The notes below the pieces were generated by a model. It was given only the letters and a program-made list of their open reading frames with translations, did not search any database and was not told the origin of the DNA. From a virus: a DNA stretch of 59,749 bases. Below, in pieces: positions 10,093 through 58,522 of the stretch. Made by a program: the position numbers and the translations under genes. The stretch lies in UHGV virus genome UHGV-0185078; one strand, written 5' to 3'. The stretch's first letter is position 1. Each line of letters opens with the position of its first letter.

Positions 10093-10098
10093 TAAATA

Positions 10099-10127
10099 AT
10101 TAACCCCTCGTTTGAGGGGTTAATTTT
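10099..10127. terminator. bidirectional rho-independent terminator between J-like gene and lipoprotein gene
   Basis: Perfect inverted repeat attaacccctc-gttt-gaggggttaat flanked by A/T runs on both sides. Confidence 0.7.
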
Positions 10128-15880: not shown

Positions 15881-15887
15881 GAAGAGA

Positions 15888-15913
15888 AAAGGGGGCAAAC
15901 GCCCCCTTTCTTT
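15888..15913. terminator. bidirectional terminator at the convergence of rightward and leftward units
   Basis: aaagggggc-aaac-gcccccttt perfect hairpin with A-run upstream and T-run downstream. Confidence 0.65.
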
Positions 15914-16584: not shown

Positions 16585-16592
16585 TCCTTAAA

Positions 16593-16614
16593 ATACCCGC
16601 GCGAACGCGGGTAT
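16593..16614 (-). terminator. hairpin terminator within the small-protein operon
   Basis: atacccgcg-cgaa-cgcgggtat perfect palindrome; U-rich on the minus-strand 3' side. Confidence 0.5.
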
Positions 16615-16621
16615 TATTTTA

Positions 16622-17438: not shown

Positions 17439-17502
17439 TTTGCATCTCCTCTTGTTGTATGCATATATTAAAACAGACCAGCGAATGGTCTGCAAGTAGA
17501 AT

Positions 17503-19488: not shown

Positions 19489-20441
19489 TAGACACGTTCT
19501 CCAATTAATACACCGCGAAGATTTTCCCCAAAGAATGCGCAAGGTTGCGGATACAAACTAAAGTCCGCAGTCTTAACCACATTTTCGAGCAATAGCAGGA
19601 TGTCAATATTGTACACTCCCGTTATTGTACGGTCCTGTAATACAAAGCTTGCACCTTCCGCATCATCATAGTGAGTACGGGCTAGACCGTTTTCAATATA
19701 TACACGCGGTCGGTCTTCTGCGAACGGTTTAATTTTATGCAAGCCTTCAAAAAGACCTGGATCAACAGGATGTGCATTGCATTGAACATTTAAAATACGA
19801 CGTATATCGGGCCACTCTGCATCAATAAGCTGTGTGCGCAACCAGCGACCTTCCGGATAATGAAACGTCACATTATTCTTGCTAACCTGAATATGTGTCG
19901 GGTTAGCCTTAATGCGCAGTATTTCTTTAATTGCAACGGAAGGTATTATGCAATCGATAGGGAACTGATTACCAAACCAGTATTCCGCAATAGTGACGTT
20001 ATTTGTAGCAAACAGGCTACCGTTATTAATCAGGATACCGCAAGCCCACGGACGGGAAGCATCGGAGCCTACAAACGGAGCAACGGACTTTACACCATGC
20101 ACGAAGCGAGCACCGTCTATTTCGTACAAATCACCTTCAGGGAATACGTGCGGCGTTTCTTTATCGATGCAGCGTATAGCAACACGAAACGGACCGGACT
20201 TGATATTAAGTTTACCGTTAGCCATCATTGTTAGCTGCACCGTTTCATCGCAGTTTGAAATAGCTTTAATCATAGGTCCAGCTTCGGGCTTGCAATCAAT
20301 ATCCAGCTCAATAGGGCTACCCAGTGCAATAACACCGTTAAAGCCCTGTACTTGTCCATCACGAATAAGAAAACTGGTAAGCCCTTCTACCAGTTCCTTT
20401 TTAGCGACGGAGCCTTGAACAAATTTAAGAGCGTCTAACAT
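19488..20441 (-). CDS. DNA polymerase sliding clamp (DnaN/beta-clamp-like)
   Basis: 317 aa; RWLRTQLIDAEWPDIRRIL resembles DnaN KLVDGRFPDYRRVLP; translationally coupled to the polymerase gene. Confidence 0.55.
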   Translation of the reverse strand: MLDALKFVQGSVAKKELVEGLTSFLIRDGQVQGFNGVIALGSPIELDIDCKPEAGPMIKAISNCDETVQLTMMANGKLNIKSGPFRVAIRCIDKETPHVFPEGDLYEIDGARFVHGVKSVAPFVGSDASRPWACGILINNGSLFATNNVTIAEYWFGNQFPIDCIIPSVAIKEILRIKANPTHIQVSKNNVTFHYPEGRWLRTQLIDAEWPDIRRILNVQCNAHPVDPGLFEGLHKIKPFAEDRPRVYIENGLARTHYDDAEGASFVLQDRTITGVYNIDILLLLENVVKTADFSLYPQPCAFFGENLRGVLIGERV

Positions 20442-20668
20442 TAGCGATCCTCGATTGCTCTAATTGTGGTTAAATCTAATTCACAGGTTGGAGGTAATCC
20501 ATAAAGCCCCATTTGTCTTCCTTGCGCATTAAACCATGTACCTGACGGATCCTGCCACTGCTTAGGTGTCTTGTGGAGAAATACTACTCTGTTTTCACCG
20601 TAATAATTAATTCTTACACCTGTGTGAGTATATTTACGTTTACCTTTTGGTCTTCTTAAGTTAGCCAT
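20441..20668 (-). CDS. hypothetical basic protein
   Basis: 75 aa ORF, start and stop overlap neighbours. Confidence 0.4.
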   Translation of the reverse strand: MANLRRPKGKRKYTHTGVRINYYGENRVVFLHKTPKQWQDPSGTWFNAQGRQMGLYGLPPTCELDLTTIRAIEDR

Positions 20669-21588
20669 CAGAACAACTCCATTACACGATCACGGAATGT
20701 GCCATCATGGGTAGCGTTAATGTTTGCAGCAATTACACCATACGCCCATAAGTTGAAGGCAGCACGTGATTCATAGATTGTTGATAAACGTTCGTAAGTG
20801 AAACCGTTTTGCTCAAGGTATTTAAGGACAGCGTCTTGTTCAATTTCAGTTAATGTTGAAACATGCTTACCAAAATGATGGCGGTCCGGTGACTTATCTG
20901 ATACGCGCATTGGCCCCCACGGAGGAGTAACCACACTTCCAAACGCTGCCGCTTGAATCCAGGAGGATGAGTCACAACTATACCACGGATAACGTTCCAT
21001 AATGGTTGTTGACGTAATACCAAACGCATGAAGTTTAATCTTAGCACGTCCGCTACCATCGCAAATATATTTGTCCCACATGCGGTCAAGCCAAGTCTTA
21101 AGCGTGTCCGTTGAACGTCCTACCATGCCCCCGATGGTGATATATTCGTAGTTCTTCATGTAGTATTCAAGATAGCGGAAGTCCTCCCCAAAGTGAAAGC
21201 ACGGTAACGGTTTAGCACCGCGTGCTTCCATTTCAAGCTGGTTACGGTAGGTCTGCAACGGATCACCGATACCATCGAGCACTGACGCCATTACAGCACC
21301 ATCTTCTACCCGCAAAATGTCTTTATTGCGCTTGATGTACTCGCAGTATTCAACAATATCAATGTGAGCACCCAAAGAGTGAGCGGAGAATGCACCAGAG
21401 TCGAGAAACACTTTAGCCCCATCCGCACGCATTTGATCAACATACTTCTGACGCCCAACGTAGTGGTACGATTCCAAAATATGGGGCAGGTTGCGAGTGA
21501 TATTTTTCTCATGCTCGGATAGCTTTTCGTAACGCTGCTGTCCAGGCATATATCCGTTAGTATACACAGCCGCCATGAATACATTCAT
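20668..21588 (-). CDS. dpdA: DpdA, tRNA-guanine transglycosylase-like DNA 7-deazaguanine transglycosylase
   Basis: 306 aa; TGT-like VFLDSGAFS motif; clustered with folE, queD, queC, queE. Confidence 0.75.
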   Translation of the reverse strand: MNVFMAAVYTNGYMPGQQRYEKLSEHEKNITRNLPHILESYHYVGRQKYVDQMRADGAKVFLDSGAFSAHSLGAHIDIVEYCEYIKRNKDILRVEDGAVMASVLDGIGDPLQTYRNQLEMEARGAKPLPCFHFGEDFRYLEYYMKNYEYITIGGMVGRSTDTLKTWLDRMWDKYICDGSGRAKIKLHAFGITSTTIMERYPWYSCDSSSWIQAAAFGSVVTPPWGPMRVSDKSPDRHHFGKHVSTLTEIEQDAVLKYLEQNGFTYERLSTIYESRAAFNLWAYGVIAANINATHDGTFRDRVMELF

Positions 21589-21612
21589 ATCTTAAATATA
21601 CCTCCAATGACT

Positions 21613-21648
21613 AAAAAGCCCATACCAGTATTATGACCGATATGGGCT
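21613..21648 (-). terminator. rho-independent terminator between folE and dpdA
   Basis: Minus strand reads agcccata...tatgggct hairpin followed by ttttt. Confidence 0.55.
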
Positions 21649-21667
21649 TGATCTGTAAAGCTATCTA

Positions 21668-22270
21668 TTATTTACAAGCTTCAAGGAACTCCCGGCGCCA
21701 AATTTGCCCCATCTCGGTACATTGATCCGTTTCCCCGCGAAACGCCTTAGTGATGGTAGAGCTTCCGCACACTTGCTTAACGCCGCGCGACTCCATGCAC
21801 ATATGCTTGGCGTCAATATAAACACATACAGCTTTCGGGTTTAAATTCTCTTCAATAGCGTCTGCAATCTGGTTAGTAAGACGTTCCTGAACTTGCAGTC
21901 GACGACTAAAAGCATCCACCACGCGAGACAGCTTACTAAGCCCAACGATCTTCCCATTGGGGACATAACCCACAACAGCATGACCGATAATAGGAGCCAT
22001 GTGATGCTCACAATGGCTGTATACAGGGATATCACGGACAATGACCATTTCATTGGTGTTTTCCGCCCCATCCTCAAAGGTCTTAAACAGCCCAGCAATA
22101 TCTACATCGTAACCGCCGAACCATGTAGCATAGGCTTTAGCGACACGATATGGAGTCTCTTCCAAACCTGGACGTAATTCAGTGCGATTTTCAATTCGAG
22201 TTAGTAAAGCGCGCACCGCGCGAGTAATTTCAAATTGAATACTTTCGTCATTAATAGTAAATTTTGACAT
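21668..22270 (-). CDS. folE: GTP cyclohydrolase I
   Basis: 200 aa; conserved CEHHMAPI...GHAVVGYVPNGKIVGLSKLSRVVD signature. Confidence 0.9.
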   Translation of the reverse strand: MSKFTINDESIQFEITRAVRALLTRIENRTELRPGLEETPYRVAKAYATWFGGYDVDIAGLFKTFEDGAENTNEMVIVRDIPVYSHCEHHMAPIIGHAVVGYVPNGKIVGLSKLSRVVDAFSRRLQVQERLTNQIADAIEENLNPKAVCVYIDAKHMCMESRGVKQVCGSSTITKAFRGETDQCTEMGQIWRREFLEACK

Positions 22271-22305
22271 GGTTTGCAGTTTCCTTGTTTGTTAATGTGG
22301 TCATA

Positions 22306-22839
22306 TTACAGGCTATAGTTTACGTGACATTTCGAAGTTTCTTCGATGGTGCATTCTACAAGTTGAACACCATGTTCGTCAAGCAGTTGCGGCCCAATTA
22401 CGTTTACCATGTATGCAGCTAAGTTTTCCGCAGTAGGGTTGAACGGTAAAGATACCAGCGAGTCAAAGAAATGGTATCCGTCCTCTTGCTCTACCACGTC
22501 ATACCCTATAGCAGCGTCGTGACGTAAAAGAGCATCGAGTCCTTTAATGAGAGGATCATTTTCCCAATGCAGGAATTTATGATCCCAGTTATCTTCCAGC
22601 CATTGGCAGAGCGTAGTTTTAACCACACTAAAATCAATAACGCGCCCAACATCGTCCAGTTTACCTTCAACGGAGAAACCTTTCGCACCCGGGATGTAGT
22701 TTTCGCTTTCTACGCGCTTCGGTGCAACCTTAAAGTGAAACTTATAGTTGTGACCGTGAAGGTGGCGACATTTGCTTTCATGACCCACAACACGATGTCC
22801 GGCGCAAATTTCATGTGAACGAATTACTGTATAGCTCAT
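22306..22839 (-). CDS. queD: 6-carboxy-5,6,7,8-tetrahydropterin synthase
   Basis: 177 aa; CAGHRVVGHESKCRHLHGHNY zinc-binding signature. Confidence 0.85.
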   Translation of the reverse strand: MSYTVIRSHEICAGHRVVGHESKCRHLHGHNYKFHFKVAPKRVESENYIPGAKGFSVEGKLDDVGRVIDFSVVKTTLCQWLEDNWDHKFLHWENDPLIKGLDALLRHDAAIGYDVVEQEDGYHFFDSLVSLPFNPTAENLAAYMVNVIGPQLLDEHGVQLVECTIEETSKCHVNYSL

Positions 22840-23168
22840 TAGAACTTCTCCGCGTGTTTTTCGTATGCTTTATTAATGACAGTGAGAAAGCACTGGTCCC
22901 ACTCACTCCACAGGACTTTACCCATACTTACCGCTTCAATGTAAAAAGTATGAGTGGCATCATCTTGGAACAATTTAATAGTGACGTCCGAACCATTTTG
23001 GATATAACCCATCAACGCGCGTATTTTATCACCTACATCCATGTATGGATTAAACTGAGGAACTGCTTCTTCAACCGCATCAATTAAATCATAAGCTTGC
23101 TGAGGGATGGGATTTCCGAAGGCCTTATGGGCAACACCTATTCTTGCTAGATTGCTCAGCTTATTCAT
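22839..23168 (-). CDS. hypothetical protein inside deazaguanine cluster
   Basis: 109 aa ORF, start/stop overlaps with neighbours imply co-translation in the cluster. Confidence 0.45.
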   Translation of the reverse strand: MNKLSNLARIGVAHKAFGNPIPQQAYDLIDAVEEAVPQFNPYMDVGDKIRALMGYIQNGSDVTIKLFQDDATHTFYIEAVSMGKVLWSEWDQCFLTVINKAYEKHAEKF

Positions 23169-23755
23169 TTTAATACCTCTTTAGATTGTTCGATTTCTAA
23201 CGCACGCTGTGCAGACGCAATAATGTCTTTCAAATCTTCTACCAGACTTTTATGACCGCGTTCGCCCGGCTGCAACGCCTTTTTAATTAAATGTTGTAAA
23301 GCTGGGTTAGTTGTTTTCCAAGCTTCCAAGACATCATACACGTCCACGATGCATTTTACAACATTGCCGTTTTGATCTTTACCATGAATAATTCTCTGAT
23401 ATTTATTCATAGGGATTTTAGACGGTTCGTATTTCGTAAAAACTGCACCATTAAATGTATTACTTATGCTTATTTCACTAGAAGGTTGATGATACACTCC
23501 GGAGCGAGTATTTTCCCGGGCTTGTTTGACGTAATCATCCGCAACGATATATCTCCAGGCTATAATATCTTGAATTTTATAAGGGCTATCCTCATCCATA
23601 GCTGAACGCCCGTCTATAGCCCAATCCCATCCATGTAATAGATTCTTAACGTGTGTGCCGTTGCGCAAACGAACTTCAAACTTTTCATTGCGAAGAAAGA
23701 TTGGCATTCCTTTCCCATCGTGCTGGTGCCAAATTTTATTAAGATTATCTTTCAT
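23165..23755 (-). CDS. hypothetical protein inside deazaguanine cluster
   Basis: Start set to ATG 23755 (track start at 23794 is TTG); 196 aa; no recognised motif. Confidence 0.45.
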   Translation of the reverse strand: MKDNLNKIWHQHDGKGMPIFLRNEKFEVRLRNGTHVKNLLHGWDWAIDGRSAMDEDSPYKIQDIIAWRYIVADDYVKQARENTRSGVYHQPSSEISISNTFNGAVFTKYEPSKIPMNKYQRIIHGKDQNGNVVKCIVDVYDVLEAWKTTNPALQHLIKKALQPGERGHKSLVEDLKDIIASAQRALEIEQSKEVLK

Positions 23756-23756
23756 T

Positions 23757-24239
23757 CTACGCTCTTGCTGTACTTGAATGAACTTCGTAAACAATCCAAA
23801 GGATAGCGGATGCTGTGAACTTACTTAAGCTCATTGCCACCATTGATCCAGGATTAACAATACCTATAATACTTAAGAACACAATGGAGTCAATCGGTAC
23901 AGCTACCAAAGAGCTAATAAATACACGTTGATGAAACGGCTTCTTAGTAATCGTGTATACCGCATAGTCCGCAAACTCACTAAGCGCAAAAGACGCAACG
24001 GATGCAACTACAACAGCAGGATCCCCAAATACCCAGCTAAGGATGCAACCCACAATCATTGCAGGGATAACGCCTTTGCCAGCGTTACGCTGTGCGTAGT
24101 CACGCAACACAAAGATAATACCTACAAAGAAAGCCATCATTGGGACTACACCGAGTGGTGTATTAAGCATTGGAAGGTAGGAAAAGCCCAGGTTTACGAA
24201 TGTAATTGCAGCCAGATAAGCAACGATAAATTTCATACT
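23757..24239 (-). CDS. integral membrane protein, possible YhhQ/QueT-like 7-deazaguanine precursor transporter
   Basis: Start set to ATG 24239 (GGAG RBS 9 nt upstream); 160 aa with 4-5 hydrophobic helices; weak resemblance to the YhhQ family; lies between queD and queC. Confidence 0.4.
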   Translation of the reverse strand, partial: SMKFIVAYLAAITFVNLGFSYLPMLNTPLGVVPMMAFFVGIIFVLRDYAQRNAGKGVIPAMIVGCILSWVFGDPAVVVASVASFALSEFADYAVYTITKKPFHQRVFISSLVAVPIDSIVFLSIIGIVNPGSMVAMSLSKFTASAILWIVYEVHSSTARA

Positions 24240-24356
24240 TTTGTTCTCCAGTTTTAACAGCGTTATTCGCTGGTTGTTGGGTTTAAAAGCTTTAGTAGTA
24301 TAGTTGGGTTCCCGCACCCTAAACAATGCGCTAGCGGTGCGGTTTTCGCGGTAAGA

Positions 24357-25064
24357 TCAAGCTTTGCTAATAAATTCGCTGTACCCTTTAGCACGCAGTT
24401 TGCACGCAGGACATTCACCGCAACCATAGCCCCAGTCATGCAGAGTGCGACGGATACCATTATAGCAGGTATGGGACTGTTCAATTACTGTGGTTAAGAA
24501 ACCAACCTTATCCGCCAGTTCAAACGTTTCCGCTTTGTTTAAACGCATAAGAGGGGTAACAAAATGAATATCTGTTTCATATCCAACGTTTAACGTAGCT
24601 TCAAGGAGATCAACAAACTGCTGGCGACAATCCGGATAACCGCTATAGTCTGTTTCACAAACGCCTGTAACCACATATCGAGCGCCAACTTTCTGTGCGT
24701 AGGCGTGAGCGGTAGTCAGGAAAAGAGCATTACGGTTTGGCACAAAGCTTGCTGGAAGGTTGTTGTGCTGTTCGTGATGTTCGTTAACATCACCTTCGTT
24801 CCCGATTAAAGCGCTATTGCCAATCTGTTTTAAAGCAGGTAATTCAAAGACAACAAATGGGACATCGTGCTCTTTACAAATTTGATTAGCACAAGCCAGC
24901 TCAATGTTATGACGTTGACCGTATGCAAAACCAATAGCGTAGACCTTATCATAGTTATTAAGTGCAAGGCCCAAACAGGTTACGCTGTCCTGGCCGCCAG
25001 ACAGGACGACAACGGCGGAGTTATGATTTTTTACAGGGAATACCAGTTTATCTAATTTATTCAT
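24357..25064 (-). CDS. queC: 7-cyano-7-deazaguanine synthase
   Basis: 235 aa; PP-loop VVVLSGGQDS; C-terminal Zn-Cys cluster CYNG...CGECPAC. Confidence 0.9.
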   Translation of the reverse strand: MNKLDKLVFPVKNHNSAVVVLSGGQDSVTCLGLALNNYDKVYAIGFAYGQRHNIELACANQICKEHDVPFVVFELPALKQIGNSALIGNEGDVNEHHEQHNNLPASFVPNRNALFLTTAHAYAQKVGARYVVTGVCETDYSGYPDCRQQFVDLLEATLNVGYETDIHFVTPLMRLNKAETFELADKVGFLTTVIEQSHTCYNGIRRTLHDWGYGCGECPACKLRAKGYSEFISKA

Positions 25065-25269
25065 TTACTTCACCTTTAATATCACAAGGATTGATTGTTA
25101 CGTTTGACATCACAATTGGATGATTGCGTGCCCCAATTGTACTAACGTAATTAATATCTAATTCTACATGCACGCCCTGCATAGTAGCGTGAGCAATTGC
25201 AGAATTAAGTTTTTCCACCAGCTCAGTGATCATTTCCTGATGCTGTTTCGCTTCTTCCAAAGTGATCAT
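25057..25269 (-). CDS. hypothetical protein inside deazaguanine cluster
   Basis: 70 aa; ATG 25269 with GAAGGTGA RBS; overlaps the upstream ORF. Confidence 0.4.
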   Translation of the reverse strand: MITLEEAKQHQEMITELVEKLNSAIAHATMQGVHVELDINYVSTIGARNHPIVMSNVTINPCDIKGEVNE

Positions 25270-25522
25270 TTCTTTTCACCTTCACTAATGTTTGTTTATA
25301 ATCCATACCTTCAAGGTCAACTTCTGCCATTTCACAAAAGTTATTATCTTCCCAGTATGGTGTCCATTCAGTTTCACCATCCCTCAATGTTGGCTCATAC
25401 TCGAATCCGTAAACTGTACCGTCTTGATCCGTAGCCATCCACCGTACCCATTCAGGGACATCAATCTTATTGCCAAAGTATTCAACTTCTTTAGTATGCA
25501 CAACCTGACTTAACACACGCAT
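25223..25522 (-). CDS. hypothetical acidic protein inside deazaguanine cluster
   Basis: 99 aa ORF, start overlaps queE stop. Confidence 0.4.
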   Translation of the reverse strand: MRVLSQVVHTKEVEYFGNKIDVPEWVRWMATDQDGTVYGFEYEPTLRDGETEWTPYWEDNNFCEMAEVDLEGMDYKQTLVKVKRNDHFGRSETASGNDH

Positions 25523-26229
25523 TATTCCACCCCGATATATTTGTGAACCTGAAGCTGCAACGTGTACCCGTGTTTCATACAGCTTTGGACAACCGCTTGG
25601 ATGTTACTGTGGTTAAGATCTTCATCCTGCTCGTCCATTGGCTGTAAATATATCTTACCCTTGAACCCCTTCGGAGGTCTAGCGATAAATGGCGTAGCTT
25701 GATGATCTAATGCTTGAAGAGGTAAACCATCTTCCACGTTTACACAGCACGCTTTAAGTACATATTTAAATGCATTAGCGCGGTAAAGCACAGAAGGATG
25801 AATCTTTGAGGTCTTGGGACTACATACAATCACAGGCAACTGGGAAAAGTTCTTAGGTAAAGGCATAGACCCATTAGTTTCGATTTGCACCAAATAGCCC
25901 CGCGATAACAGTTGTTCAATAAACGGGTTAATTTGCTGACGGAACGGTTCACCCCCAGTAATAACCACAAGTGAGGTGCTATTGCCTGATTCCAGCTTAC
26001 GGCTTTCGATTAAACGCATGATATCAACAATGTGGTAAAGAGAACGACCAACAGTATAATCCGTGTCGCAGCCCGGGCATTGTAGGTTACATCCAGCAAG
26101 ACGCACAAATACAGCAGGTTGGCCGCAGAATGGCCCTTCACCCTGAATGGTAGAGAATACCGAATGCACGTCTAAATACATATCGTTTTCTTTAGAACGA
26201 GACTCGGGAGCTTGTTGATTAATATTCAT
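25522..26229 (-). CDS. queE: 7-carboxy-7-deazaguanine synthase (radical SAM)
   Basis: 235 aa; radical-SAM Cys triad CNLQCPGCDT; AGAGGA RBS. Confidence 0.9.
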   Translation of the reverse strand: MNINQQAPESRSKENDMYLDVHSVFSTIQGEGPFCGQPAVFVRLAGCNLQCPGCDTDYTVGRSLYHIVDIMRLIESRKLESGNSTSLVVITGGEPFRQQINPFIEQLLSRGYLVQIETNGSMPLPKNFSQLPVIVCSPKTSKIHPSVLYRANAFKYVLKACCVNVEDGLPLQALDHQATPFIARPPKGFKGKIYLQPMDEQDEDLNHSNIQAVVQSCMKHGYTLQLQVHKYIGVE

Positions 26230-26245
26230 CTTAAATCCTCTAGTG

Positions 26246-26274
26246 AAAAAGAAGGCGCCCCATTGGGCGCCTTC
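26246..26274 (-). terminator. rho-independent terminator upstream of queE
   Basis: 10-bp perfect stem gaaggcgccc/gggcgccttc, 4-nt loop, then ttttt on the minus strand. Confidence 0.7.
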
Positions 26275-26298
26275 ATTATAACGTGATATGTTTTGATA

Positions 26299-27102
26299 TT
26301 ACAAGCCGTTCAGGGCTTCCGGTACTGGTACAGGTACGCGACCAGTCACACCATTAAATTTCTTCCAGCGTGCATACTGGGTTTTAACAGTATCTTCGTT
26401 CAGACCGTGACGACCAGCCAGGTTCAGAACATAAGAGATCGGAGCAGGCTGGCCCAGCGTAGCGCTAATCTGGTCCATCAGAGCCCAGGCACGACCGCAG
26501 GAAGTTTCCGGTTGCGGACGGCGAACACCGTTCTGTTCCGGCATACGATTAGCTTCTTTTTCTTTCTCGCGGAGCTCTTTAGCGCGCGCTTTTTCCGCTT
26601 CTTTTTCTGCCTGTTTTGCAGCACGGATCTTGTCTTTGAAGCCTTTAATAGTAGATTCCAGTTCGTCGACCATGCTCTGAGCAGCAGTCACTGCACCGGA
26701 CAGATCTTCACCTTTGGATTTTTTAACAACTGCTTTCAGATCTTTCAGAGCATTCTTTAAATGCTTCAGCTGTTCAGAACCCTTAGATTCTGCTTCCGTA
26801 ATCTGTTCAACAGTGCTTTCATCGGTAATACCGGATAAAGCAAACTTCACGGTTTCAACTGCCTGGGAAAGAGCGGTAAATTTGTTTTCCGCTTCAGCGC
26901 GGATTTCAGCTTGTTTCTTTTCAGCGGCAGCTTTTTTCTCTGCTTCTTTTTTCTCTTTTGCTACGCGTGCAGCTTCAGCAGCAGCGGCTTTCTTAGCTTC
27001 TGCGTCATTCACAGTAGCTTCTTTCTTTGCAGGTTTAGCAGATTTTGCGGCGGCAGCGGCAGCGGCTGCGGCAGCAGCTTTTTTGTCTTCAATGTTGCTC
27101 AT
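26299..27102 (-). CDS. Lys/Ala-rich histone H1-like protein with conserved C-terminal domain
   Basis: ATG 27102 with GGAG RBS; poly-Ala run and KKAAAE repeats; C-terminal WALMDQISATLGQPAP...YARWKKFNG paralogous to C-terminus of ORF 43605-44219. Confidence 0.55.
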   Translation of the reverse strand: MSNIEDKKAAAAAAAAAAAKSAKPAKKEATVNDAEAKKAAAAEAARVAKEKKEAEKKAAAEKKQAEIRAEAENKFTALSQAVETVKFALSGITDESTVEQITEAESKGSEQLKHLKNALKDLKAVVKKSKGEDLSGAVTAAQSMVDELESTIKGFKDKIRAAKQAEKEAEKARAKELREKEKEANRMPEQNGVRRPQPETSCGRAWALMDQISATLGQPAPISYVLNLAGRHGLNEDTVKTQYARWKKFNGVTGRVPVPVPEALNGL

Positions 27103-27229
27103 TCTCTTCACTCCGAATTGTTATGGGTTCGTTTGTTACCAACGGGGTTAAATGTACCAAAGGATTTTGTGACACGCAACCCCTTATCTGAACATTTTTA
27201 AAAATATTTTTGATCAAGCTTAGAACTTA

Positions 27230-27724
27230 CTAGCTCTTTGCCCCTCTGCCCGGCGTCCATGCAGCTTGCAATGCGGGTTGCTCACAAACAACCCTGGCAC
27301 CGGAAATAATACCACCCTCCCGTTCAGCATCGTATTTGACACGGGCAGGTTTCCAAAGTCCTTCATCCATTGACGGAACGTATTGCCCAATTTGAGGTGA
27401 GCAAAAGCCTTGGATATCGTATTCCACACAGAATTCAGCTTGTGCGCTGATTTGGGCGTGATCCAGGATTGTTTCTGGAAGTTGCGTAAAGTAATCAAAC
27501 AAAATGCGCTCAACGATTTCCCGTTCATAAGGTGCAGCTCCTAAATTTTCTGTCAAGTTAATATAAAGCATTTGAAGATCAACATCTTCAAGATCGTGTA
27601 AATCGTCCACTGGTGTTACCAGTGTTGACTCCGGACAACAAATAATTCCAAGTTGGTGTAGTGTCAGCCAATTGGGATGCTTTGCCAAGAGCTCAAATTT
27701 ATCTGTATCAATTAGGACGTACAT
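27230..27724 (-). CDS. hypothetical acidic protein
   Basis: 164 aa; AGGGGA RBS 5 nt upstream of ATG. Confidence 0.45.
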   Translation of the reverse strand: MYVLIDTDKFELLAKHPNWLTLHQLGIICCPESTLVTPVDDLHDLEDVDLQMLYINLTENLGAAPYEREIVERILFDYFTQLPETILDHAQISAQAEFCVEYDIQGFCSPQIGQYVPSMDEGLWKPARVKYDAEREGGIISGARVVCEQPALQAAWTPGRGAKS

Positions 27725-27745
27725 TGCAATCCCCTGTAAATAAGT

Positions 27746-27768
27746 AATGCCCCAATAGTAGGGGCATT
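27746..27768 (-). terminator. candidate terminator after helicase gene
   Basis: aatgcccc-tactatt-ggggcatt hairpin followed by a U-rich stretch on the minus strand. Confidence 0.4.
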
Positions 27769-27783
27769 AGATGTTGAAGTCAA

Positions 27784-29763
27784 TTAGAACGGAACGTAAT
27801 CCGGATCATCTACTTGCACAGGATTAACCACATTGTTCACCGTTATGCCTTGCGTATTCTGTGAAACAATATCATCCCAGCTCACATCATCATTGTTATA
27901 GCTCGGACCTTCTGTTGTTCCATCCTGCCCGTATACTTTAACCTGAATAGCTTCGTCGTCCTGTGGTGCTTCAAACTTACCGAAACACGTACCATCATAA
28001 TCATAGTTCAATATCTCAGGCCATTTCTTATTGGTATGAACTTTGATGTATTTCGGTGTTTTAAGCATTGCAGCAACATCAAGGGCTTCTTCAATAGTTT
28101 GTGGTAAAGGAAGATGCGTCCTTTTCTTCCACCATGCAACCGCTTTACGACCTGCCCAGTCACCATGAAGCAGAGCTACCCATTCGCTGAATATTTTACT
28201 ACCGCAATAATAAGTCACCTTCATTGTTGGAGGTTTGGAGCTGTCATTGCGTTTAGTGTGCTTCGCATAAGTGACATGCGTAACTTTAAAGTCTTCAACT
28301 ACCGGAATGTCTTGCTTGATTAAAGCTTCGGTACTTGCTGCCTTTTTAAGTTTTGTCTGGAACTTAAACTCATGACCGCAAAATCCTTCTTTAACATAAT
28401 CCGTTCCACGTAGTCTGAATCCCTTCAAATACAATTGTTGAACTTGTTCCTGTGTAACGCTGTCCATAGGAATTGGTGCAAAGCCACCGCAATAGCGAGC
28501 AGATGCATGATTATACGACCCGCACACATCGCATTCTTTAACCGGAGCAGTACCAGCACCTTTTTCGCCCGGGCGCTTGGGTTTAACAGGGTCGTTAATA
28601 GGGCCCAAACGACGCGTATTACCGCTGAAATCCAGTACAAGGCAGTTCTGCTTAGGGCTTGCTGCAATAGCTTGCAAGCGACCTTCCTGCGTGGAAAGAT
28701 CAAAGCCCTCCGCATATACCGGACGCGTACCGCGACCCAACATCTGAACCCATAGCACTGCCGAGGCAGTGGGGCGAAGCATAATAATTAGATCAAGCAT
28801 CGGATGGTCGAACCCTGTGGTTAAGACGTTGTTGTTCGTCAGCGCTCGAAACTCTCCACGCTTGAATTTTTCAATAATTTCATCACGCTCTTTTGCATCA
28901 AGCTTTGAGTGAATACATCCGCAACTAATACCCATATCGTTCAGCATATCACACGCATCTTTAGCGTGTTCAATACCAGAACAAAATATAAGCCAGCTTT
29001 GACGGTCTTCACCACATTCAATGGCTTCCTCAAGTGCGCGGAGTGTTGCGTCGTCGCGGTTCACTGCACTTTGCAGCTCACTCTGAATAAACTCACCGCC
29101 GCGTTTACCTACCCCGTTGAGGTCCAGTTCCATCTTTGTACGCTTTGGCACAACCGGAAGCAAATAACCTTGCTCCAGGAACCAGTTAAAGGCTTCAGGA
29201 GTAGTCGCATCAAACGTTACTTTATCAAATAAAGCATCATCGTCTTCGTTTTCCTTAACAATTGAGCCGTAACCCAGTCGATAAGGTGTAGCGGTAAGAC
29301 CGATAATTTTTAAATACGGGTTAACTTCACGCAATGCTGCAAAGAACTTCTTATACATTGTTGCATCACGCGGACTAATAAGGTGCGCTTCATCCACAAA
29401 GATTAGATCAACCTTGCCGAACTTTTTAGGATGCTTAGCAACGGATGCAATCCCCGCAAATGTGATAAGATTATAAACTTCTTTACGCTTCAAACCTGCA
29501 CTGTAAATACCTGCTGGCGCTTCAGGCCAGACTTTCATTAATTTATCATAGTTTTGCGCGATCAACTCTTTGACGTGAGTTAACATCATTACGCGCTGGT
29601 TTGGATACCATTTATAAAGCAGATCGAGGAACCCCGCGATAACGAGCGATTTTCCTGTCCCTGTTGGTAACAGGATCAAAGGGTTCCCCGCGTTACCCTT
29701 TTCAGCATCAAAATAGCGGAATACGCTATAAACTGCTTCCTGTTGATAATCGCGGAGCTGCAT
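27784..29763 (-). CDS. SF2 DEAD/DEAH-box DNA helicase
   Basis: Motif I LLPTGTGKS, motif II FVDEAH, motif III LTATP, motif VI QMLGRGTR; start taken at ATG 29763 (track start is TTG). Confidence 0.85.
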   Translation of the reverse strand: MQLRDYQQEAVYSVFRYFDAEKGNAGNPLILLPTGTGKSLVIAGFLDLLYKWYPNQRVMMLTHVKELIAQNYDKLMKVWPEAPAGIYSAGLKRKEVYNLITFAGIASVAKHPKKFGKVDLIFVDEAHLISPRDATMYKKFFAALREVNPYLKIIGLTATPYRLGYGSIVKENEDDDALFDKVTFDATTPEAFNWFLEQGYLLPVVPKRTKMELDLNGVGKRGGEFIQSELQSAVNRDDATLRALEEAIECGEDRQSWLIFCSGIEHAKDACDMLNDMGISCGCIHSKLDAKERDEIIEKFKRGEFRALTNNNVLTTGFDHPMLDLIIMLRPTASAVLWVQMLGRGTRPVYAEGFDLSTQEGRLQAIAASPKQNCLVLDFSGNTRRLGPINDPVKPKRPGEKGAGTAPVKECDVCGSYNHASARYCGGFAPIPMDSVTQEQVQQLYLKGFRLRGTDYVKEGFCGHEFKFQTKLKKAASTEALIKQDIPVVEDFKVTHVTYAKHTKRNDSSKPPTMKVTYYCGSKIFSEWVALLHGDWAGRKAVAWWKKRTHLPLPQTIEEALDVAAMLKTPKYIKVHTNKKWPEILNYDYDGTCFGKFEAPQDDEAIQVKVYGQDGTTEGPSYNNDDVSWDDIVSQNTQGITVNNVVNPVQVDDPDYVPF

Positions 29764-30674: not shown

Positions 30675-30739
30675 TGGAGCACCTTAGAAAAATAAGCCGT
30701 CTTTCGACGGCTTAGGGACACTACAGAGGGAGGGTTAAC

Positions 30740-33964: not shown

Positions 33965-34008
33965 TGTTTTTCCTTAATAAAAAGGGGGTCGAAAGACCCC
34001 CTTGTAAG

Positions 34009-37153: not shown

Positions 37154-37185
37154 AATAAAAAAGCGCAACGTTTTCACGCTGCGCT
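37154..37185 (-). terminator. rho-independent terminator closing the structured non-coding island
   Basis: Minus strand agcgcagcg-tgaaaa-cgttgcgct hairpin followed by tttttt. Confidence 0.6.
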
Positions 37186-37491
37186 TAGTTTAAATAAGGT
37201 ACTTGACTATTCAGCTTCCCTTATTTCCGGTAAATTGTACAGCCTCGCCAAAGGCTGGTGACGGTTTGGTACATCTGGCGCCGTCGCGTTAAACATCGTT
37301 TACATCGTTCAGTAAGTTGCGGGTTTACCCTGTCCGCTCCAGGAAGCCCAGCGAAAGTAGTTGCTGTAAGGAGGTACAGCTACCGCTTTCAAGGGCTTGA
37401 GTTAAGCATCGTTCACTAAGTTAATGTTGTTAAATTGTTAAACCTCGTTAACTGTGGTTATCTTAAAGGATGCAGTCTTGAATGGCAAGCT
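37186..37491 (-). other. GC-rich structured non-coding island (candidate ncRNA or cis element) between the HNH genes
   Basis: No ORF on either strand; multiple short perfect stems (cagcct-cgccaa-aggctg, gctgta-aggagg-tacagc, gggt-tt-accc); closed by terminator 37154-37185 on the minus strand. Confidence 0.4.
37294..37423. repeat. direct repeats catcgttca(g/c)taagtt within the structured island
   Basis: Copies at 37303-37318 and 37408-37423 (15/16 identical) plus partial copy catcgtt at 37294-37300. Confidence 0.5.
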
Positions 37492-38852: not shown

Positions 38853-38857
38853 CAATA

Positions 38858-38883
38858 AAGGGCCTTTCGGCCCTTTATTTATT
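38858..38883. terminator. bidirectional terminator between small + gene and primase gene
   Basis: aaagggcc-tttc-ggcccttt perfect hairpin flanked by A and T runs. Confidence 0.7.
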
Positions 38884-46307: not shown

Positions 46308-46358
46308 TTATCATTCTATAATGGGCTCTACGGAGCCCTTAATTATCTGGAGGTTGTT

Positions 46359-58384: not shown

Positions 58385-58522
58385 TCATGGAAATGAGCCA
58401 TAGACAATATGTGTTGTGGCTCCTCCGACGTAATAGAAAACGGCGTCAAGAAGACGCCGTTTCTGTTCCTGAAGAAGAGCTCCCGCCACTTATCCCTACA
58501 ACCATCGCAATGAGGAAGAAAG

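Follow-up and report, generated by a model that had tools for sequence, protein, structure and literature searches.

Predicted intrinsic terminators interlaced with promoter-like elements at two junctions of a phage deazaguanine gene cluster

Introduction

Rho-independent terminators have already been predicted by independent annotators (TransTermHP, WebGeSTer) at two orthologous sites, one after folE and one before queE, in Escherichia phages Seurat (KM236243) and vB_EcoS_SA80RD (OL960575) and in the Nonagvirus vB_EcoS_SP8 (MT682705). In SA80RD, overlapping TTGACA-N15-18-TATAAT-like promoters are annotated as well. The main papers on the deazaguanine pathway that we searched (CAjan, Iggy) do not discuss the transcription units of the cluster, and the literature searched yielded no published mapping of transcript ends, 5' or 3', in Seuratvirus, Nonagvirus, or other Queuovirinae. 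The phage RNA-seq that we encountered in Seuratvirus-mentioning literature concerned only the T5-like phage Bas33.

Leaky internal terminators are known to tune gene dosage in the lytic phages T7 and LUZ7 (10.1101/2022.03.18.484859). There, as we propose here, hairpin-plus-U sites between co-directional genes give rise to overlapping transcription units; the sites of Pseudomonas phage LUZ7 were mapped by ONT-cappable-seq, whereas those described below are known from sequence and seem to have host-type promoters nested within them. A second relevant system is that of Kang et al. (2020, PMC6978380), in which RNA polymerase kept on DNA after RNA release re-initiates nearby with an efficiency that varies with terminator-promoter distance. 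It resembles our locus in placing an intrinsic terminator near a same-sense promoter, but the elements were separated and studied in vitro at the single-molecule level, whereas the putative promoter described here is nested in the terminator, at a distance of about zero. Linking our sites to such post-termination polymerase recycling is speculation by analogy.

Here we analyze a 59,749-nt stretch of viral DNA (UHGV-0185078; hereafter the window), the complete genome of an E. coli phage of the genus Seuratvirus (Queuovirinae). We focus on two minus-strand hairpins, T1 at the folE-dpdA junction and T2 between a Lys/Ala-rich gene and queE. Terminator prediction at these sites is not new and, stated as such, adds little, being a matter of textbook elements already annotated in sister genomes. 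What it can offer is a testable transcription map of a phage DNA-hypermodification cluster, in which queE to folE would form one unit and dpdA another, together with the DNA polymerase genes.

Two intergenic hairpins

A first-pass annotation of this DNA had called minus-strand terminators at both junctions and suggested folding energies as a check. Both hairpins are present exactly where it placed them, both are intergenic and well beyond chance, and the genes on either side were correctly assigned:

20668-21588, minus strand: dpdA, DNA 7-deazaguanine transglycosylase, first gene downstream of T1 (PHROG 887 queuine tRNA-ribosyltransferase, E = 8e-96)
21611-21617, minus strand: U-rich tail of T1, UUUUUAG, whose first two U close the stem (sequence)
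21616-21649, minus strand: T1 terminator hairpin (fold; orthologous terminator annotated in Seurat, SA80RD, and SP8)
21668-22270, minus strand: folE, GTP cyclohydrolase I, last gene upstream of T1 (Pfam PF01227, GTP_cyclohydroI, E = 1e-62)
25522-26229, minus strand: queE, radical SAM 7-carboxy-7-deazaguanine synthase, first gene downstream of T2 (Pfam Radical_SAM/Fer4_12; QueE annotation in relatives)
26246-26250, minus strand: U tract of T2, UUUUU (sequence)
26251-26274, minus strand: T2 terminator hairpin (fold; strict scan)
26299-27111, minus strand: gene for a Lys/Ala-rich protein, predicted to be ended by T2 (PHROG 11298, no assigned function)

Read on the minus strand, the T1 stem (21649-21616) comprises 14 bp, including two G.U pairs, around a 6-nt loop, giving the RNA 5'-AAGCCCAUAUCGGU-CAUAAU-ACUGGUAUGGGCUU-UUUAG; the U-rich tract directly 3' of the stem is UUUUUAGU, with a T run at 21617-21613. 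The hairpin occupies the 79-nt folE-dpdA gap, 18 nt past the folE stop codon and on the same strand as the genes. Its MFE is -20.3 kcal/mol (z = -6.0), which none of 200 shuffles equals. Its two G.U pairs would read as A.C mismatches in the complementary strand, so this fold belongs to the sense RNA alone. T2 (26274-26251) has a shorter stem of 10 bp, eight of them G-C, capped by a tetraloop (5'-GAAGGCGCCC-AAUG-GGGCGCCUUC-UUUUUCAC), and is followed directly by the U-rich tract UUUUUCAC. It sits in a 69-nt gap before queE, 24 nt past the stop codon of the Lys/Ala-rich ORF and co-oriented with it, and folds at -21.5 kcal/mol (z = -5.2; 0/200 shuffles fold equally well). T1 and T2 thus carry every sequence hallmark of an intrinsic terminator, and very probably function as terminators.

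T1 is identical in Seurat and SA80RD, and T2 nearly so. The T2 of the window is stronger than that of its sister phages, with a G-C pair in place of A-U and an extra C-G pair, which yields 10 bp and a tetraloop rather than 9 bp and a 6-nt loop. Like SA80RD, the window has no extra small ORF between T1 and dpdA, and its DpdA is 100% identical to those of slur01 and SA80RD.

We considered other identities for these elements. Like the preQ1 riboswitches found upstream of bacterial queuosine genes, T2 is a small hairpin directly upstream of a que gene, but it consists simply of a G-C stem and a U tract, with nothing suggestive of an aptamer, and the Rfam models preQ1-I, -II, and -III gave no match up to E = 5 in 20000-28500. 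Searching the same interval against Rfam for other RNA families returned only sub-threshold matches (the best scored 27.8 bits, where the gathering score is 50), none of them at T1; those at T2 all belonged to families with a hairpin-plus-U element, mostly small RNAs. The window contains no tRNA genes. A third terminator, annotated between queC and a yhhQ-like gene in SA80RD by WebGeSTer only, was rejected for the window, where the corresponding region shows an unremarkable fold (z = -1.06) and lacks a U tract.

A series of sites along the minus strand

How often would such elements arise by chance? A permissive RNAfold-based scan made hundreds of intragenic calls, and we used filtered and strict scans instead. 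The strict scan, demanding a perfect stem of 8 bp or more that includes four or more G-C pairs, a loop of 3-8 nt, and then a T run, found 11 sites in the whole window, compared with 0.93 +/- 1.08 in 40 dinucleotide shuffles; with the minimum stem raised to 10 bp, the counts were 7 and 0.15. All 11 are intergenic and oriented like their flanking genes, T1 having the longest stem among them and T2 the most G-C pairs.

Roughly ten hairpin-plus-U sites, likewise intergenic and co-oriented, run along a 27-kb minus-strand block (37186, 34003, 30714, 27769, 26274, 21649, 17493, 16613, and 15910). Those other than T1 and T2 are:

15887-15910, 16592-16615, 17473-17493, 33982-34003, and 37161-37186, minus strand: other terminators of the series (scans)
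27745-27769, minus strand: sister site after a helicase gene, a 9-bp stem and the loop UACUAUU, followed by a weak U-rich tail (fold, scans)
30693-30714, minus strand: further terminator, co-oriented and intergenic (scans)

T1 and T2 are therefore members of a block-wide series, and the idea that their placement is special to the deazaguanine cluster does not hold. Even the description of both as lying inside the cluster applies to T1 only, T2 being at its upstream edge.

Promoter-like elements within the terminators

Both hairpins overlap or abut sigma-70-like hexamers on the same strand, each pair matching 10 of 12 consensus positions:

21630-21659, minus strand: putative sigma-70-like promoter in T1, with -35 TTTACA (21659-21654), an 18-nt spacer containing the 5' arm, and -10 CATAAT (21635-21630), which is the hairpin loop (hexamer match; 'promoter' annotation overlapping the terminator in SA80RD)
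26275-26304, minus strand: putative sigma-70-like promoter abutting T2, with -35 TTGTAA (26304-26299), an 18-nt spacer, and -10 TATAAT (26280-26275) (hexamer match; 'promoter' annotation in SA80RD)

At T2, the -35 overlaps the stop codon of the Lys/Ala-rich ORF and the -10 ends 1 nt before the 5' arm. The sister site at 27769 contains a similar nested arrangement, TTGACT-17-TACTAT (27783-27755), again with the -10 in the loop; in relatives this loop hexamer reads TAcTAT, TAtTAT, or TAtAgT, with positions T1, A2, and T6 of the hexamer kept. Only two terminator loops in the window exceed 5 nt, and both carry a -10.

The geometry has a simple consequence for folding. In every case compared, the predicted start (7 nt past the -10) is located inside the 5' arm or past it. 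For the folE-dpdA hairpin it lies at ~21623, within the 3' arm, and RNA from this start has no hairpin (-3 kcal/mol); in folding, terminators do not form in RNAs begun at the predicted starts.

By itself, resemblance to a promoter carries little weight here. Sigma-70-like matches in the window numbered 36, 35, 45, and 39 against shuffle means of 33, 34, 40, and 35, and with no genome-wide excess the promoter calls draw solely on comparative data. A-rich 5' flanks, which are common at terminators, could also mimic TAAAAT-type hexamers. Weighing these points, we lean, by a small step, towards the overlapping promoters being functional.

Conservation across relatives

A search of IMG/VR with DpdA gave seven loci, and diversity was sampled instead from GenBank phage records. 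When 7.4 kb are aligned with STP-SP5 and Hafnia yong3, the entire T1 terminator/promoter module falls within one invariant block:

21610-21667, minus strand: 58-nt block identical in all three phages, spanning the whole T1 module (alignment)

This is the second-longest three-way identical run in an alignment whose three-way identity is 46% overall. Recent recombination could also account for such invariance. Variable ORFs are inserted directly downstream of T1 in relatives, which marks the site as a mosaic junction. Since T1 is invariant within the genus, it provides no covariation signal there; comparison with Pantoea phage Vid5 shows one compensatory pair. At T2, two stem pairs show changes on both sides; one stem pair is A-U in most relatives, G.U in WildeMaa, and G-C in the window, and a second is G-C or U-A. 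This comparison covers six sequences, and its covariation score is reached by 62 of 500 shuffles. In the six-phage alignment of T2, the -35 and -10 hexamers (columns 17-23 and 41-46) are invariant, as is one other column of the spacer, whose length is constant.

Further afield, the hairpin position at the folE-dpdA junction is strongly conserved over 11 Queuovirinae-like lineages, and phages whose DpdA proteins are 58-73% identical have unrelated hairpin sequences there. In 10 of the 11, a TATAAT-like hexamer (at least 5/6; seven exact) lies in the loop of this hairpin or overlaps or abuts its 5' arm; by comparison, an exact TATAAT occurs in only one of the 17 other terminator strands of the window. 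The -35 elements are weak (3/6) in most of the distant lineages. The architecture is kept across phages of Escherichia, Pantoea, Klebsiella, Enterobacter, Providencia, Vibrio, and Pseudomonas despite replacement of the hairpin sequence. A hairpin also precedes queE in the Nonagvirus phages 9g, BRET, and SP8, yet none of these has a -10 placed where transcripts could escape it, so the T2-type promoter is supported within Seuratvirus only.

Proposed stop-and-restart boundaries and their alternatives

Taken together, these data suggest that T1 and T2 are probably stop-and-restart boundaries between transcription units, at which terminators are interlaced with sigma-70-type promoters; the hairpins, U tracts, position, orientation, excess over chance, conservation, and promoter-like hexamers can be read directly from sequence, and termination and initiation at the two sites, with whatever efficiency, are inferred from them. 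Host RNA polymerase travelling along the minus strand would be stopped at either hairpin independently of Rho, T2 ending the transcript of the Lys/Ala-rich gene and T1 that of the queE-to-folE biosynthetic unit, and the series of about ten sites would cut the leftward block of replication and nucleotide-metabolism genes into units. RNA from a nested promoter would begin inside the hairpin and lack its 5' arm, so that no terminator could form and the transcript would continue into dpdA at T1 or into queE at T2. In this way the sites would uncouple expression of the Lys/Ala-rich gene, of queE to folE, and of dpdA with the polymerase genes. The earlier proposal of graded expression with transcriptional insulation survives in part: the sites would indeed separate queE to folE from the genes on either side, but the sigma-70-like promoters overlapping both point to stopping and restarting rather than to a gradient.

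More generally, we see an even chance that the folE-dpdA junction of Queuovirinae-like phages is a conserved nested terminator/promoter cassette, with the dpdA -10 in the loop or against the 5' arm, in which ~45 bp would stop the incoming polymerase and launch a transcript that does not terminate itself; T2 and the 27769 site would be further copies. Such a cassette might exploit polymerase recycling after termination. If real, a promoter nested in a terminator would constitute a compact natural insulator part, and would explain how the expression of dpdA could keep time with replication without depending on preQ0 synthesis.

The main competitor is pure attenuation, in which leaky hairpins without re-initiation leave one polycistronic RNA that steps down from upstream to downstream genes. 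It shares all the terminator evidence (the folds and the excess over shuffles), has documented precedents in T7 and LUZ7 (10.1101/2022.03.18.484859), and probably describes some members of the series, as sites 30714, 34003, and 17493 have no convincing promoter. As an account of T1 and T2 we consider it rather unlikely. No other hairpin on the strand is as strong as these two (about -20 kcal/mol), and with some seven terminators ahead of dpdA and the DNA polymerase genes, serial loss would presumably starve essential replication genes. Nor does attenuation call for -10 hexamers at a fixed geometry in 10 of 11 lineages, or for T2 hexamers that stay invariant while the spacer sequence varies.

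A run of many strong terminators along one strand would also suit temporal antitermination, with an early stop and later read-through by way of a phage antiterminator (lambda N/Q-like) that delays the deazaguanine and replication genes, and time-dependent read-through is known in other phages. We regard this as improbable, because no antiterminator-like gene appears among the 19 ORFs scanned (20441-27724) and the conserved nested promoters would be left unexplained.

Stable 3' stem-loops block 3' exonucleases, and the intergenic position of the sites would fit hairpins that serve chiefly as mRNA 3'-end protection or as RNase processing sites rather than as polymerase stops. The unbroken U tracts right after the stems are instead a signature of termination that stabilization does not need. 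RNase III substrates typically contain ~20 bp of near-continuous double-stranded RNA, and the stems of 14 and 10 bp fall below this, on which ground we rejected an RNase III site; altogether this role is highly improbable for T1 and T2.

Finally, palindromes acting at the DNA level, as operators for dimeric regulators or as recombination or cruciform sites at module junctions, could draw on the mosaic character of the T1 junction and on the overlap of the palindromes with promoter-like hexamers, but are scarcely credible given that the G.U pairs of T1 and of the WildeMaa T2 would be mispaired in DNA and in the opposite strand, that the U tracts are one-sided, and that the hairpin sequence differs wholly between lineages which keep the architecture, an ill fit to a sequence-specific protein site.

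Probable hairpin terminators in the minus-strand gene block

The window, 59,749 bp long, is the whole genome of a siphophage assigned to the genus Seuratvirus (Queuovirinae). Within it, region 21000-27200 matches Escherichia phages RCIP0359, Greed, Seurat, WildeMaa, CAjan and some 30 more at 90-95% identity across over 80% of that region. The minus-strand gene order read off the window agrees with the gene labels of the first-pass annotation:

Gene order on the minus strand
helicase, first in order
164-aa ORF, minus, after the helicase
27111-26299, minus, Lys/Ala-rich 270-aa protein
26229-25522, minus, queE, followed by small ORFs
25064-24357, minus, queC
yhhQ-like transporter and two unknown ORFs, minus, between queC and queD
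22839-22306, minus, queD
22270-21668, minus, folE
21588-20668, minus, dpdA
75-aa ORF, clamp and DNA polymerase, minus, after dpdA

That annotation had placed two intrinsic terminators in this block, and both are present, with stem, U tract, position and strand confirmed:

Terminator hairpins T1 and T2
stem 21649-21616, minus, T1 (between folE and dpdA): 14-bp stem with two G.U pairs, 6-nt loop, then UUUUUAG
stem 26274-26251, minus, T2 (between the Lys/Ala-rich gene and queE): 10-bp stem with 8 G-C pairs, tetraloop, then UUUUUCAC

The folding free-energy calculation it had proposed gave minima of -20.3 kcal/mol for T1 (z = -6.0) and -21.5 kcal/mol for T2 (z = -5.2), and 0 of 200 shuffles were as stable in either case. 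Both hairpins occupy short intergenic gaps on the coding strand, immediately after a stop codon. A strict scan found 11 hairpin-plus-T-run sites in the genome, compared with 0.93 +/- 1.08 in 40 dinucleotide shuffles, and 7 sites with stems of at least 10 bp (0.15 in shuffles); all 11 were intergenic and co-oriented, with T1 and T2 the strongest among them. T1 and T2 are very probably genuine intrinsic terminators.

Comparable sites recur every ~1-5 kb on the same strand (37186, 34003, 30714, 27769, 17493, 16613 and 15910), so terminators of this type are not peculiar to the deazaguanine genes. Both had been described as lying inside the deazaguanine cluster, which holds for T1; T2 sits at its upstream edge. 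The orthologous sites already carry terminator annotations in Seurat (GenBank KM236243), in SA80RD (OL960575, citing WebGeSTer and TransTermHP, with overlapping promoters annotated too) and in Nonagvirus SP8 (MT682705); T1 and T2 are ordinary elements and not new. The literature searched yielded no transcript maps for any Seuratvirus or Nonagvirus, and promoters, terminators and operons go unmentioned in the main papers on modification in CAjan and Iggy.

The window contains no tRNA genes; in Klebsiella phage vB_Ko_K4PH164 (locus L013, 3350-3438) a tRNA-Ser gene lies between the T2-equivalent terminator and queE.

Candidate promoters overlap the hairpins

The first-pass annotation overlooked candidate promoters overlapping these terminators. 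A consensus scan returned candidates at T1, at T2 and at the sister hairpin after the helicase gene (27745-27769, minus; the 27769 site):

Promoter-like hexamers at terminator hairpins
21659-21630, minus, TTTACA-18-CATAAT, -10 exactly the T1 loop
26304-26275, minus, TTGTAA-18-TATAAT, -10 ending one base ahead of the T2 stem
27783-27755, minus, TTGACT-17-TACTAT, -10 within the loop of the 27769 hairpin

Such matches alone carry little weight because they are equally common in shuffles; support for these three candidates comes from comparative data. Six phages share both T2 hexamers unchanged, with constant spacer length and just 1 other invariant spacer position. The 27769 loop hexamer reads TAcTAT, TAtTAT or TAtAgT in relatives, keeping the critical T1, A2 and T6 positions of the hexamer. 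At the folE-dpdA junction a hexamer matching TATAAT in at least 5 of 6 positions occurs in 10 of 11 lineages (7 exact), either within the hairpin loop (window, Vid5, PSTCR7, VhaS-tm) or just upstream of, abutting or overlapping the 5' arm (9g, Kpn2-P2, EC151, NP1, Iggy and locus L005); an exact TATAAT in that position is found on only 1 of the other 17 terminator strands of the window. Only two terminator loops in the genome exceed 5 nt, and both hold a -10. In every case the predicted start, 7 nt past the -10, is inside the 5' arm or lies past it. RNA from the predicted T1 start would form no terminator (-3.0 kcal/mol), and neither would RNA from the predicted T2 start, which retains a residual 4-bp stem apart from the U tract.

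The folE-dpdA junction across lineages

We compared post-folE junctions from phages with 58-73% DpdA identity to the window: Nonagvirus 9g, BRET, ChristophMerian, SP8 and JenP1, Pantoea Vid5, Klebsiella Kpn2-P2, Enterobacter EC151, Providencia PSTCR7, Vibrio VhaS-tm, Pseudomonas NP1 and Iggy, and two IMG/VR contigs. Every phage of this sample carries a G-C hairpin and T tract after folE, and the hairpin sequences are unalignable between lineages. The sole partial exception seen was Klebsiella K4PH164, with a 31-nt gap and a degenerate hairpin. Within Seuratvirus, STP-SP5 and Hafnia yong3 share with the window an unchanged 58-nt block across T1 (21667-21610), the second-longest invariant run of a 7.4-kb three-way alignment with 46% overall identity. 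A promoter-in-terminator cassette conserved at this junction across Queuovirinae is about as likely as not.

The point just downstream of T1 (21589-21610) is a mosaic junction, as comparison of the window with relatives (loci L001, L010, L011, L012, L015, L018, L020 and L025) shows, and homology of relatives to the window ends a few bases past the T1 U tract. No extra ORF separates T1 from dpdA in the window or SA80RD; one directly follows T1 in yong3 (135 nt), in Seurat, CAjan and WildeMaa (207-234 nt), in SP8 and JenP1 (489 nt) and in STP-SP5 (558 nt). NP1 has a homing endonuclease directly after the T1-equivalent site, and slur01 an endonuclease gene directly upstream of T1.

Termination and possible restart

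Because a host-type promoter appears to be nested in each of them, we somewhat favor a reading in which T1 and T2 double as stop-and-restart boundaries. The resulting units would be three: the Lys/Ala-rich gene; queE through folE; and dpdA, clamp and polymerase. Recycling of RNA polymerase after termination onto nearby promoters has been demonstrated in vitro (PMC6978380) and, speculatively, could make a nested promoter/terminator efficient.

The graded expression proposed in the first-pass annotation survives as far as the terminators themselves, which the hairpins and U tracts support. As pure attenuation it is unlikely, given the nested candidate promoters and the ~7 strong terminators preceding dpdA and the polymerase genes, through which serial read-through alone would be expected to leave these genes almost untranscribed; stop-and-restart would remove this starvation problem. 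Pure attenuation has precedents in T7 and LUZ7 (10.1101/2022.03.18.484859) and is plausible for the promoter-less members of the series at 30714, 34003 and 17493. Timing by antitermination is doubtful, as no antiterminator-like gene surfaced among 19 ORFs scanned across 20441-27724. Still less probable is a 3'-end stabilizer or RNase site, which would leave the U tracts unexplained, and whose stems (14 and 10 bp) are too short for RNase III. A DNA-level palindrome or operator, the least credible reading, is countered by the G.U pairs, by U tracts on one side only and by hairpin sequences that turn over between lineages.

Sequence evidence favors hairpins that act as RNA. On the opposite strand the two G.U pairs of T1 would be A.C mismatches. 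At one position of the T2 stem most relatives pair A-U, WildeMaa G.U and the window G-C, and a second pair is G-C or U-A; the covariation score, from a small sample of 6 sequences, was reached by 62 of 500 shuffles. An extra C-G pair makes the window's T2 the strongest variant seen. An Rfam search returned no preQ1 riboswitch; its matches, all sub-threshold, were to generic hairpin-plus-U elements, most of them from small RNAs.

Other promoter-like sites and hairpins

The longest invariant run of the three-way alignment, 64 nt (22322-22385, minus), lies within the queD 3' end and holds TTGACG-18-TAGAAT (22382-22353) and a 6-bp palindrome, TCGAAG-AAA-CTTCGA. This element, annotated 'promoter' in SA80RD, may be an internal folE promoter embedded in coding sequence; its hexamers are kept in Nonagvirus (TTGACC/TTGACG-18-TAGAAT), yet coincide partly with conserved QueD codons.

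A further match, TTGCGT-17-TACATT (within 27144-27179, minus), lies in the 118-nt gap ahead of the Lys/Ala-rich ORF, and the corresponding position in Nonagviruses reads TTGCAT-17-TATAGT. With this promoter-like site upstream and T2 at its end, the gene resembles a one-gene transcription unit, perhaps a sign of high expression. Its product carries a poly-Ala/Lys tract (KKAAAAAAAAAAAKSAKPAKK) at the N terminus and falls in PHROG 11298, a family of unknown function. A further nested promoter/terminator may lie in the plus-strand gene block, where an exact TATAAT directly adjoins the 5' arm of a short G-C hairpin (46323-46338, plus; GGGCUC-UACG-GAGCCC).

The terminator annotated between queC and the yhhQ-like gene in SA80RD (WebGeSTer alone) has no significant structure in the window (z = -1.06), where ~120 nt (24237-24356, minus) separate queC from the probable true start of the yhhQ-like gene; it looks like an over-call. 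Perfect palindromic intergenic hairpins at 10098-10125, 16592-16615, 38854-38879 and 58437-58463, equally stable on both strands, are candidate bidirectional terminators. By the strict T-run criterion, 16592-16615 alone passes on both strands, 10098-10125 on the plus strand only, and 38854-38879 and 58437-58463 on neither.
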